Positions 22,057 through 23,484 of a stretch of DNA of 64,000 bases are shown here, in pieces. The notes below the pieces were generated by a model. That model did not search any database and was not told the origin of the DNA. It was given only the letters and a program-made list of their open reading frames with translations. The translations under genes and the position numbers were made by a program. Position 1 is the stretch's first letter; the number at the start of each line of letters is the position of its first letter. Source of the stretch: Candidatus Micrarchaeota archaeon (GTDB lineage Archaea; Micrarchaeota; Micrarchaeia; Anstonellales; Bilamarchaeaceae); the NCBI GenBank assembly GCA_030648615.1, contig JAUSHJ010000071.1, positions 830 to 64,829 on the forward strand, in the 5' to 3' direction.

Positions 22057-23484
22057 ATGCAATTCGGAACATCAGGCATCAGAGGATTATATGGAAAAGA
22101 CGTTATTGAAGAGCTAGCTTACAAAATAGCAAACGTATTTGCTGAGAAGGACGTAGCAATTGCCAGAGATACCAGAAGAACTAGTTCTAGCTTAGTCAAT
22201 GCGGCGATTAGTGGCATTTTAGCAAGAGGAAAAAACGTTATTGATTTAGGTATAGTACCTACACCAACCTTGGCACTTGCTACGATAACGCACAAATGCA
22301 ATGGAATTATGATTACAGCATCTCACAACCCTGAAGAATATAATGGGATTAAACTTTTTTCAGATGGAAAAGAGATTTCGAAAGAGGAAGAAAAGAAATT
22401 TATTGCTAAATTTGAAAAAGGATGGTCATCGGGGCAAAAAAACGACTCAATTGTTCACATGAACAATGAGCACCATGTCCGTAGCGACGGACATGCTTGT
22501 GACAAAATTTGCCACTCGGAAAGTGGCAAAGGAACGAAACTTGCAAAATGGGATTGCTTAGGCAGTGTACATCAAGACAATAATGCGATAGCAAATCACA
22601 AAGAAATGATAAAGAAATTAGTTAATGGAGTTACCATAGGAAAGAAAAAACCTAAGGTAATCGTAGATGCAAATGGTGCTGCAACTGTTATTACATCACA
22701 ACTATTGCACGAACTAGGTTGTGAAGTGATAAGCATAAATGCACAACTTCTTGGGTTTACAAGAGGAAGCGAACCTTGCACTGAAAATCTAACAGAAGCA
22801 ATTAAACTCGTTAAATCGCAGAAAGCAGATTTGGCAGTTACCCATGATGGCGACGGAGATCGTTGCATAGTAATTGATGATTGCGGAGAAGTTCTACCTT
22901 TGGACATTCAACTAGCTATTATGATTGAAAATGAAATGGCAACTACTGGTGAGAAGAAAATCATAAGCACTGTAGAAGCATCTCTGTTGATTAGAGAAGC
23001 AGTAGAAAAAAATAGTGGAACTATAGTTATTGGCCCTGTAGGCAGTGCCCAGATATCCCATGATCTTGAAAAGAATAACGCTATTTTTGGTGGAGAGCCT
23101 TGCGGAGAGTATATTTTTGCAACTGCACAACACCACACACCTGATGGAGTTTTGGCAGCTGCCAAGTTCGTTGAGATTTTTGTCAAGCATGGAAAATTAA
23201 GTGAGTTAAAAAAGAAATATCCTAGTTATCCTATGATTCGTGAAAAATTCAAATGCGAGAAGAATGATAAATACGAAACTATCAAAAAAATAATTAAAGA
23301 TGTAAAAATTAAAGGAAAACGAAACGAGCAGGACGGATTACGTATTGATGAAGCTGATGGTTGGTTTTTAATTAGAGCTTCTGGCACTGAACCAGTTATT
23401 AGACTTACGATGGAGTATAAGAATAGAAAGAAACTAGAGGAACGAGCGAAGGAACTAAGAGAGATAATATGCAGAATAATCTAA
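22057..23484 (+). CDS. glmM: Phosphoglucosamine mutase (alpha-D-phosphohexomutase family) with a 37-aa insertion
   Basis: QFGTSGIRG, catalytic ITASHNP, metal loop DGDGDR, GGEPCG, IRASGTEP; near glmU. Confidence 0.88.
   Translation: MQFGTSGIRGLYGKDVIEELAYKIANVFAEKDVAIARDTRRTSSSLVNAAISGILARGKNVIDLGIVPTPTLALATITHKCNGIMITASHNPEEYNGIKLFSDGKEISKEEEKKFIAKFEKGWSSGQKNDSIVHMNNEHHVRSDGHACDKICHSESGKGTKLAKWDCLGSVHQDNNAIANHKEMIKKLVNGVTIGKKKPKVIVDANGAATVITSQLLHELGCEVISINAQLLGFTRGSEPCTENLTEAIKLVKSQKADLAVTHDGDGDRCIVIDDCGEVLPLDIQLAIMIENEMATTGEKKIISTVEASLLIREAVEKNSGTIVIGPVGSAQISHDLEKNNAIFGGEPCGEYIFATAQHHTPDGVLAAAKFVEIFVKHGKLSELKKKYPSYPMIREKFKCEKNDKYETIKKIIKDVKIKGKRNEQDGLRIDEADGWFLIRASGTEPVIRLTMEYKNRKKLEERAKELREIICRII
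22417..22533. mobile_element. 111-bp in-frame hairpin cassette flanked by AAAGGA direct repeats
   Basis: AAAGGA at 22417-22422 and 22528-22533; hairpins at 22450-22467, 22474-22495, 22508-22530. Confidence 0.75.

Follow-up and report, generated by a model that had tools for sequence, protein, structure and literature searches.

Palindromic DNA elements that come to be fused, in frame, with conserved protein genes are known best from Rickettsia. The Rickettsia palindromic elements (RPEs) of Ogata et al. (2000, 2002), as summarized in PMC2229807, are 105-146 bp long, consist of one long stem, and are found in frame in 19 open reading frames (ORFs), with the insert in gmk being both translated and active; copies occur as well in RNA genes, i.e., those of tmRNA and RNase P RNA. 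In-frame colonization of conserved enzymes by selfish palindromic DNA of this sort is well documented mainly in Rickettsia and Wolbachia, along with one early report involving a methanogen. Among archaea, Suyama, Lathe and Bork in 2005 (FEBS Lett 579:5281) reportedly described the palindromic MJRE repeats of Methanocaldococcus jannaschii, which are said to be mostly extragenic, with a few coding copies that keep the reading frame. Here we describe protein-coding palindromic elements, RPE-like in behaviour, that constitute a new family among archaea. This family is seen in a 64,000-nucleotide stretch of DNA from an uncultured Candidatus Micrarchaeota archaeon (assembly GCA_030648615.1, contig JAUSHJ010000071.1), the whole of which is referred to as the window, and in which a GlmM-like sugar-phosphate mutase gene holds a 111-bp palindromic insertion equivalent to 37 codons.

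The host gene occupies 22057..23484 of the forward strand and encodes 475 aa from the ATG at 22057. This ORF (21994/22057..23484, forward strand) harbours, in frame, a 117-nt stretch which both begins and ends with AAAGGA. The left copy of that direct repeat, seen at 22417..22422 (+) both by direct reading and with a repeat search, provides a Lys and a Gly codon and represents the target site. The insertion itself follows at 22423..22533 (+), as delimited by a gap relative to the DNA of the closest homologue (locus L056), and closes with the right copy of AAAGGA at 22528-22533, i.e., 111 bp from the left one. Three perfect inverted repeats are found between the two: 22450-22457/22460-22467 (ATTGTTCA/TGAACAAT), 22474-22482/22487-22495 (CATGTCCGT/ACGGACATG), and 22508-22516/22522-22530 (TTTGCCACT/AGTGGCAAA). 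An earlier note on this DNA, made from its letters alone, had described these AAAGGA copies at this spacing, the three intervening hairpins, and an in-frame, His/Cys-rich insert of 37 aa, and in all of these it was borne out, with the insert found to be residues 123-159 of the protein (WSSGQKNDSIVHMNNEHHVRSDGHACDKICHSESGKG). What that note missed is a fourth, interrupted hairpin (TGGTCATCG ... CGA//TGACAA), which encloses two of the three perfect ones. The 117-nt stretch folds at -39.9 kcal/mol versus -25.3 +/- 3.4 kcal/mol for dinucleotide shuffles (z = -4.3), with none of 200 shuffles being as stable.

Relatives of this gene do not possess the insert, which is the 37-aa alignment gap that the earlier note had predicted. 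It is missing from all 13 orthologues that were compared from this family's other genera; these read, for example, YEK-GVTLAPWDKNGKL where the present gene reads FEKG, the 37 aa, and then TKLAKWDCLGSV. It is absent as well from all 34 aligned database homologues, among them ones that are 82%, 73%, and 72% identical and 437-438 aa in length. Aligned as DNA with the closest homologue, the gene shows a clean gap of 111 bp that is flanked to left and right by sequence of ~88% identity, the homologue's empty site reading GAG AAT GGG ACT versus GAA AAA GGA/ACG here (the stroke marking the point of insertion). When metagenome contigs were scanned for further alleles of this site, the sole one to come back was that which holds the 82% homologue, and among these relatives no case was found of an insert conserved as protein in DNA that lacks the hairpins.

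The earlier note took the insertion to be a single element, and this part of its claim does not stand. The 111 bp are, that is, 57 + 54, with one element inside another. The outer element belongs to what we call family 1. Its 5' part, at 22423..22445 (+), comprises the 5' arm of a hairpin A (TGGTCATCG), its conserved loop of 11 nt (GGGCAAAAAAA), and CGA, the 3 nt with which the 3' arm begins; these were recognized via blastn and pattern matches to copies on contigs C39, C65, and C38, along with a partial match, C44:23257-23299, to a family-1 covariance model designated R1 (C44 being the contig which holds the window, from a genome, G000, of 1.65 Mb). Its 3' part, at 22500..22533 (+), comprises the TGACAA of the hairpin A 3' arm, a spacer AA, a hairpin B (TTTGCCACT-CGGAA-AGTGGCAAA), and the GGA of the duplicated site, and here R1 matches at C44:23325-23362, which is 22496-22533 of the window. 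Between these parts, at 22446..22499 (+), is a family-2 double hairpin of 54 nt, or 18 codons (SIVHMNNEHHVRSDGHAC), with the layout CTCAATTGTTCA-CA-TGAACAATGAG, CAC, CATGTCCGT-AGCG-ACGGACATG, CTTG. This nested piece splits both the 3' arm of hairpin A (CGA/TGACAA) and a codon (GA/T).

Recognition of the nested piece comes from a hidden Markov model that was built from 11 other family-2 copies and that matches 22448-22500 over model positions 3-55, with E = 7.7e-4 for the 64-kb window. The canonical form of family 2 is CCCAATTGTTnn..nnAACAATGGG CAT CTTGTCGC..GCGACAAG CTTGT, relative to which the nested outer stem displays a compensating change, CTC...GAG versus CCC...GGG. With blastn of the insert against its own genome, matches elsewhere are limited to the first 29 nt, at three places; these places, as read in context, are complete small family-1 elements, and the family is visible only by structure-aware comparison. 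The closest relative of the glmM copy is found in a related genome, G023, within a DNA ligase gene, where a family-1 copy is present without the nested piece (...KNDDKL...). The peptide of that copy, GFSSGQKNDDKLYGSERGKGY, is equivalent to the glmM insert minus the nested 18 codons (GWSSGQKND/DKICHSESGKGT).

We consider it probable that two non-autonomous palindromic DNA elements inserted, at the level of DNA, into this GlmM-like gene, and that the product is most likely translated as a tolerated loop. The insertions would postdate this lineage's divergence from that of the 82%-identical homologue. As a first step, a 57-nt family-1 element, i.e., hairpin A with its loop GGGCAAAAAAA, 2 nt, and hairpin B (TTTGNC...GNCAAA), would have landed at AAAGGA and duplicated it. 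As a second, a 54-nt family-2 double hairpin would have landed within the 3' arm of hairpin A. Both insertions supply whole codons, without a stop, and do so within a tolerant linker between domains I and II of the enzyme, which is presumably why the gene stayed open.

With matches to all four of the Pfam domains of phosphoglucomutases/phosphomannomutases (PGM/PMM), i.e., PF02878, PF02879, PF02880, and PF00408, and with all of the catalytic loops, the host gene is a member of the alpha-D-phosphohexomutase (PGM/PMM/GlmM) superfamily, and more particularly a phosphoglucosamine/phosphohexose mutase resembling GlmM. The intact motifs are TASHNP (at 87; phosphoserine), DGDGDR (264; metal), GEPCGE (346; sugar loop), and RASGTEP (440; phosphate), and homologues are annotated as phosphoglucosamine mutase of Candidatus Micrarchaeota. 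There is an unusually long gap between domain I, which extends to aa 121, and domain II, which begins at aa 183. An AlphaFold2 model of the protein (35 sequences; mean predicted local distance difference test score, pLDDT, of 87; predicted template-modelling score, pTM, of 0.87) places residues 124-158 below a pLDDT of 50 and without secondary structure, with the final helix of domain I (109-124) on one side and the initial strand of domain II (171-173) on the other. The rest of the model superposes on the archaeal PGM/PMM structures 9DU5 and 1WQA, with template-modelling scores of 0.85-0.89, and the alignment of the host protein to 1WQA by sequence is broken exactly at the domain I-II linker. 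As modelled, that is, the insert is a disordered loop in this linker and the enzyme core is intact, in keeping with the surface-loop position that the earlier note had suggested.

The domain I-II linker is a permissive site, since homologues from other Micrarchaeota carry unrelated inserts there, of 9-31 aa. Independent insertions are found in the linker and also in a second loop in proteins P0006-P0009, P0014, P0059, and P0078 (alignment A3, columns 188-270 and 394-440). In the DNA that encodes the 31-aa linker insert of P0006, neither family-1 nor family-2 hairpins were found.

Transcription and translation of the insert are most likely, and would yield a 37-residue surface loop, disordered and rich in His, Cys, and Ser, upon an otherwise intact enzyme; indirect support comes from the in-frame read-through of mid-gene copies, the intact motifs, and the loop position in the model. 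The effect is probably neutral or slightly harmful. It might be argued instead that the loop, as via binding of a metal or a partner, or the hairpins of the mRNA, as via stability, pausing, or translation, have been co-opted and are kept by selection. The loop is of odd composition (5 His, 2 Cys, and 6 Ser among 37 residues), a recurrent peptide, (A/G)LSxGQKNxDNI(C/R/W)H, is found with genic copies in different genes, and all three of the short hairpins remain perfect. The His and Cys codons nevertheless are by-products of palindromic codon pairs, i.e., CAT/ATG, CAC/GTG, and TGT/ACA, hence the richness in these residues, and the likeness among peptides follows from shared DNA together with a single usable frame (two of the six frames of the 111-nt insert are free of stops). 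The loop furthermore is modelled as disordered, the insert is restricted to one lineage, and the genes hosting these elements encode unrelated enzymes, all of which makes co-option quite unlikely as compared with insertion of elements that are simply tolerated.

What are these elements as families? A family-1 element opens with hairpin A, the stem of which is of the TTGTCAnCG type and the 11-nt loop of which is conserved as GGGCA(A/G/C)AAAAA; 2 nt follow, and then hairpin B, TTTGnCnn...nnGnCAAA. In the three copies found by blastn the sequence of the 5' flank recurs at the 3' end, with a period of 57-59 nt. Across 11 aligned copies, 98.4% of alignment cells are paired, 10 of 17 pairs have changed on both sides, one-sided changes are seen for none of the 17, and there are no G-U pairs. 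Such Watson-Crick-only covariation points to palindromy kept at the level of DNA, where both strands matter, rather than as RNA structure. With R1, 69 matches are found in the genome itself at E <= 1 (both strands), ~18 of these above 48 bits and two of them partial matches to the glmM copy. For family 2, 55 regular-expression matches on the two strands represent ~25-30 doublets. The genome overall holds 777 perfect hairpins (stem of at least 8, loop of 3-12) versus ~330 in shuffled sequence, and these form 137 clusters, including arrays of up to ten hairpins.

Within the same family, R1 has matches in 20 out of 99 genomes and in 10 out of 23 genera, with copy numbers that are patchy (34 in G099, 25 in G001, 7 in G003, and 6 in G023). 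Within a phylum sample of 251 genomes no R1 matches were seen outside of that one family, and a GTDB-wide scan for an exact pattern gave a single match, in the Micrarchaeota metagenome-assembled genome (MAG) nzgw32. The exact hairpin A core was not found in viral contigs, none of the curated covariance models of Rfam matched near their gathering scores at five copies, and none of the papers listed by a literature search combines Micrarchaeota with hairpin or palindromic repeats.

A second shared property of family 1 is duplication of its flanks. In nearly all of ~60 copies (41 of which were fetched from relatives), the 4-7 nt that precede the element recur at its 3' end, and they do so including at positions that vary from copy to copy: AAAGGA, AAAGCA, AAAGCG, AAACCA, AAAGGT, AAGCT, AATGCG, and CCA, with GGA, GCA, GCG, CCA, GGT, and GCT as the variable ends. 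Target duplication following a staggered cut, with AAAGNN as the preferred site, would produce such a pattern. Since the CAAA of hairpin B overlaps the repeat, one cannot say exactly how long the duplication is.

Flank duplication also bears on which of the previously described classes of element may be involved. [quoted passage not shown] The stems of hairpins A and B, as compared as possible terminal inverted repeats, are alike in some copies (TTGTCA) and not in others. With the palindrome-associated elements (PATEs) that derive from IS200/IS605 there is a likeness in the hairpins near the ends, whereas IS200/IS605 makes no target duplication and the elements here do. The PATE mode of insertion, 3' of a fixed tetra- or pentanucleotide, also does not describe these copies, among which the duplicated nucleotides vary.

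Repetitive extragenic palindromes (REPs), their mosaic elements (BIMEs) and doublets (REPINs), and the associated REP-associated tyrosine transposases (RAYTs) offer another comparison. Short and perfect hairpins, a conserved foot, covarying stems, and a mostly intergenic occurrence as singlets, doublets, and mosaic arrays (PMC3116915, PMC3184786) are all shared, the 137 clusters of up to 10 hairpins being of that kind. Here, unlike with REPs, there is no linked RAYT, the hairpins are AT-rich, and flanks are duplicated, and REPs do not colonize ORFs in frame. The genome does possess a single Y1 (IS200-type) transposase gene, at C47:14377-14727 (L043 1447-1929), at a contig end, with terminal hairpins that are GC-rich and unrelated to the AT-rich families described here. 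PF01797 (Y1_Tnp) was not found in the copy-richest genomes, G099, G001, G003, and G023, though as MAGs that are 75-92% complete this absence is not absolute. With unrelated ends and a lack of co-occurrence, a RAYT or Y1 transposase was rejected as the mobilizer, and the REP/BIME with RAYT class along with it.

The likeness to RPEs, which the earlier note had proposed, is one of behaviour rather than of kinship. If 'RPE-like' is defined by behaviour, then there is here a palindromic family present in multiple copies within one genome, and members of it are in frame within conserved ORFs whose orthologues lack the insert (glmM, GcvPA, and redoxin, together with TrpA, LplA, DNA ligase, and aminotransferase in relatives). 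As with RPEs and similar Wolbachia elements, the family is dispersed, both intergenic and fused in frame with conserved protein genes that it does not break (PMC2229807). Also alike are copies in RNA genes (tRNA introns for the present family, tmRNA and RNase P RNA for RPEs), the use of tolerant surface positions, and a host that is a small-genome, host-dependent microbe. In contrast, that host is a DPANN archaeon here rather than an alpha-proteobacterium; the unit is 54-59 nt with two independent short hairpins rather than 105-146 nt with a single long stem; a clear 4-7 bp flank duplication is seen, where that of RPEs is entered as '?' in PMC2229807; and the elements here nest and build mosaic arrays. 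Membership in the Rickettsia RPE family proper was rejected given the archaeal host and a unit of 57 nt versus 105-146 nt, a separation made by description rather than by sequence comparison, though kinship in sequence would not be expected.

The MJRE repeats offer an archaeal counterpart in kind, these too reportedly being a palindromic family that is mainly extragenic with some in-frame coding copies. The phylum and the element nevertheless are different, and here many copies are found in housekeeping enzymes across several genera, along with nesting and copies within tRNA introns; this distinction as well is by description.

Most family-1 copies are found between genes, at gene edges, or in tRNA introns. 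By contrast, 82% of random 55-nt windows fall within an open frame of at least 150 codons, and such an intergenic bias is expected of elements which selection removes from genes. In this genome just three copies lie well within ORFs, each of them in frame: that of glmM (111 nt); one in glycine dehydrogenase subunit 1, GcvPA (57 nt; LSAGQKNADNICHETRDKS); and one in a redoxin/AhpC-TSA protein (57 nt, in another frame; FHRGTKTMKNFAINQMAKE). Relatives of the GcvPA and redoxin proteins are without the inserts. In related genomes, in-frame copies are seen in TrpA, lipoate-protein ligase (LplA), ATP-dependent DNA ligase, a class-V aminotransferase, and several unnamed ORFs, in one orientation and with the peptide pattern (A/G)LSxGQKNxDNI(C/R/W)H in common. 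Periods of in-frame genic copies are 111, 57, 57, and 54 nt. Among the ~60 copies, eight have flanks that are both open, on one strand, for 60 codons or more, and seven of the eight read through without a stop, whereas ~1/3 would be expected to do so were frame irrelevant. An old genic copy is the DNA ligase one (L103 1539-1596; G023:C2), which is located in the C-terminal OB domain and encodes GFSSGQKNDDKLYGSERGKGY. As its hairpins have decayed yet its frame has been kept, this copy suggests long retention as coding sequence.

A number of observations weigh against what we have proposed, and these fall into two groups. The first concerns copies that break a frame or that must be removed from RNA. 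A second family-1 copy in the window, 26650..26705 (+; C44:27479-27534; R1 score of 71.4 bits), with a 55-nt period and CCA/CCA flanks, breaks a DUF460-like (RNase H-fold) ORF at MYLIVGIDP/GIKVGY. Over the region 26624-26705 (C44:27453-27534), it brings both a TGA and a frameshift, with an in-frame ATG at 26670. Filtering of genic insertions has been incomplete, that is, since this copy shifts the frame. In addition, several copies are located inside tRNA genes or introns, where removal from RNA is required; doublets of family 1 or family 2 are found in the long inserts or introns (85 to ~180 nt) of tRNA genes at C38:36858-37037, at C54:2478-2689, and in a tRNA-Leu at ~27366-27619 of the window. 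For the C38 gene the ARAGORN call (Ala-CGC, with an 85-nt intron and a 24-nt variable arm) is doubtful.

These same copies are what would speak for removal of the glmM cassette as well, i.e., that the archaeal splicing endonuclease, or some other hairpin-specific RNase together with a ligase, cuts it from the RNA, so that the mature enzyme lacks the 37 residues. The tRNA cassettes of the same families must be spliced, exact removal of the 55-nt DUF460 copy would restore a conserved GIDPG motif, and the splicing endonuclease of Micrarchaeota (ARMAN) possesses a broad substrate range. An archaeal bulge-helix-bulge intron, however, would present two 3-nt bulges and a 4-bp helix, and of five copies tested none supplies a 4-bp central helix with flanking helices, even with boundaries placed at any shift within the repeat; that type of intron was rejected. 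Introns of that type also are free as to length and frame, and excision would leave ~2/3 of mid-gene copies out of frame, whereas seven of the eight are in frame and free of stops. The tRNA cassettes moreover are only part of a larger intron, the old DNA ligase copy remains in frame despite decayed hairpins, and stems without G-U pairs are unlike RNA structure. We judge removal at the RNA level to be improbable for glmM and infer, in keeping with insertion into the gene followed by translation, that the insert is retained in the protein rather than removed, is selectively near-neutral, and that the elements are moved by a trans-acting enzyme.

The second group concerns the data and the mode of insertion. 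The genome is a draft assembled from a metagenome, in 76 contigs and ~90% complete. A clear flank duplication was not seen around the nested family-2 piece; GAC/GAC was considered for this role and ruled out, the GAC copies being separated by 57 nt rather than 54. A transposase for these elements was not found, the only Y1 gene having unrelated GC-rich ends, nor did blastn of the genome turn up a parent element, though no systematic IS search was made.

A repeat-rich draft of this sort raises the prospect that the insert is an assembly chimera, put together from repeats within a metagenome bin. Alternatively, the gene might be a decaying pseudogene whose place has been taken by a paralogue, and a second PGM/PMM paralogue, 36% identical, is in fact present at C70:1330-2253. 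Against chimerism, the insertion is found on a 75-kb contig with unique flanks, has an exact 6-bp duplication, and consists of whole codons, and other genomes, assembled independently, also have in-frame copies of this sort. Against decay, the ORF runs uninterrupted for 475 codons, none of the catalytic motifs has been lost, and both paralogues are present in relatives too. Artefact or pseudogene we consequently regard as highly improbable, and genuine insertion of two elements into a gene that has stayed open as much the better account.

A broader proposal can be made as to what the doublets are. They may be substrates of a novel, hairpin-directed DNA insertion system that is confined to one Micrarchaeota family, operates without a RAYT or classical IS, and both prefers and duplicates AAAGNN sites. 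In that case a stop-free, coding-competent subfamily, (A/G)LSxGQKNxDNI(C/H), could be a recurrent source of surface loops for housekeeping enzymes, with tRNA copies and frame-breaking ones (DUF460) perhaps rescued at the RNA level. Taken as a whole this proposal is unlikely, and we offer it as a speculation. The combination of clear flank duplication, strict Watson-Crick palindromy, and no linked transposase makes the element a well-delimited starting point in a search for its mobilizing enzyme.

That in-frame colonization recurs in DPANN archaea, with one family having entered GlmM, GcvPA, redoxin, TrpA, lipoate ligase, DNA ligase, and aminotransferase over several genera, extends what has been described chiefly for Rickettsia and Wolbachia. 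It also supplies a natural series of loop insertions of differing ages, from perfect to decayed hairpins, with which the origin and tolerance of peptide segments may be studied. For annotation and phylogenomics of reduced archaeal genomes it serves as a warning, since such elements may appear as spurious insertions, split Pfam hits, frameshifted genes, or oversized tRNA introns.

Some further features are found in the window and its genome. A third, more diverged family-1 match in the window is at 45136..45191 (-; C44:45965-46020; 48.7 bits with R1). The DUF460-like ORF holds, besides its frame-breaking copy, an in-frame double hairpin of another type at 26963-27018 (C44:27792-27841; ACAAATC../ATAAATC..), encoding RQISKKDLWSINLIADLS, and C8:12629-12678, within a frame of 191 aa, has a similar double hairpin. 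At 27287-27300, upstream of a hairpin cassette, is a duplicate of the initial 14 nt of the tRNA-Leu. Introns of different tRNAs, at C38:18989-19133, C43:36629-36796, and C54:2478-2689, share a conserved stretch, GAGTCTTG...GCAGGAC.CGAAACACGAAAC, which suggests a related family of introns, possibly mobile and distinct from the hairpin doublets. The same array of 6-8 hairpins is seen at several contig ends (C24:1-180, C29:1-156, C71:6-199, C70:55793-55942, and C43:1583-1766), hence hairpin arrays are probably a main cause of breaks in this assembly. Lastly, a third type of hairpin doublet (GGATAAAATT../TTGTAAATT..) is present in G000 at C34:6861-6913, C34:18395-18447, and C41:34225-34277, in each case in frame within a long open frame (321-523 aa) and with a nearly identical peptide, DEKFDxKIFQNCKLSNLQY.

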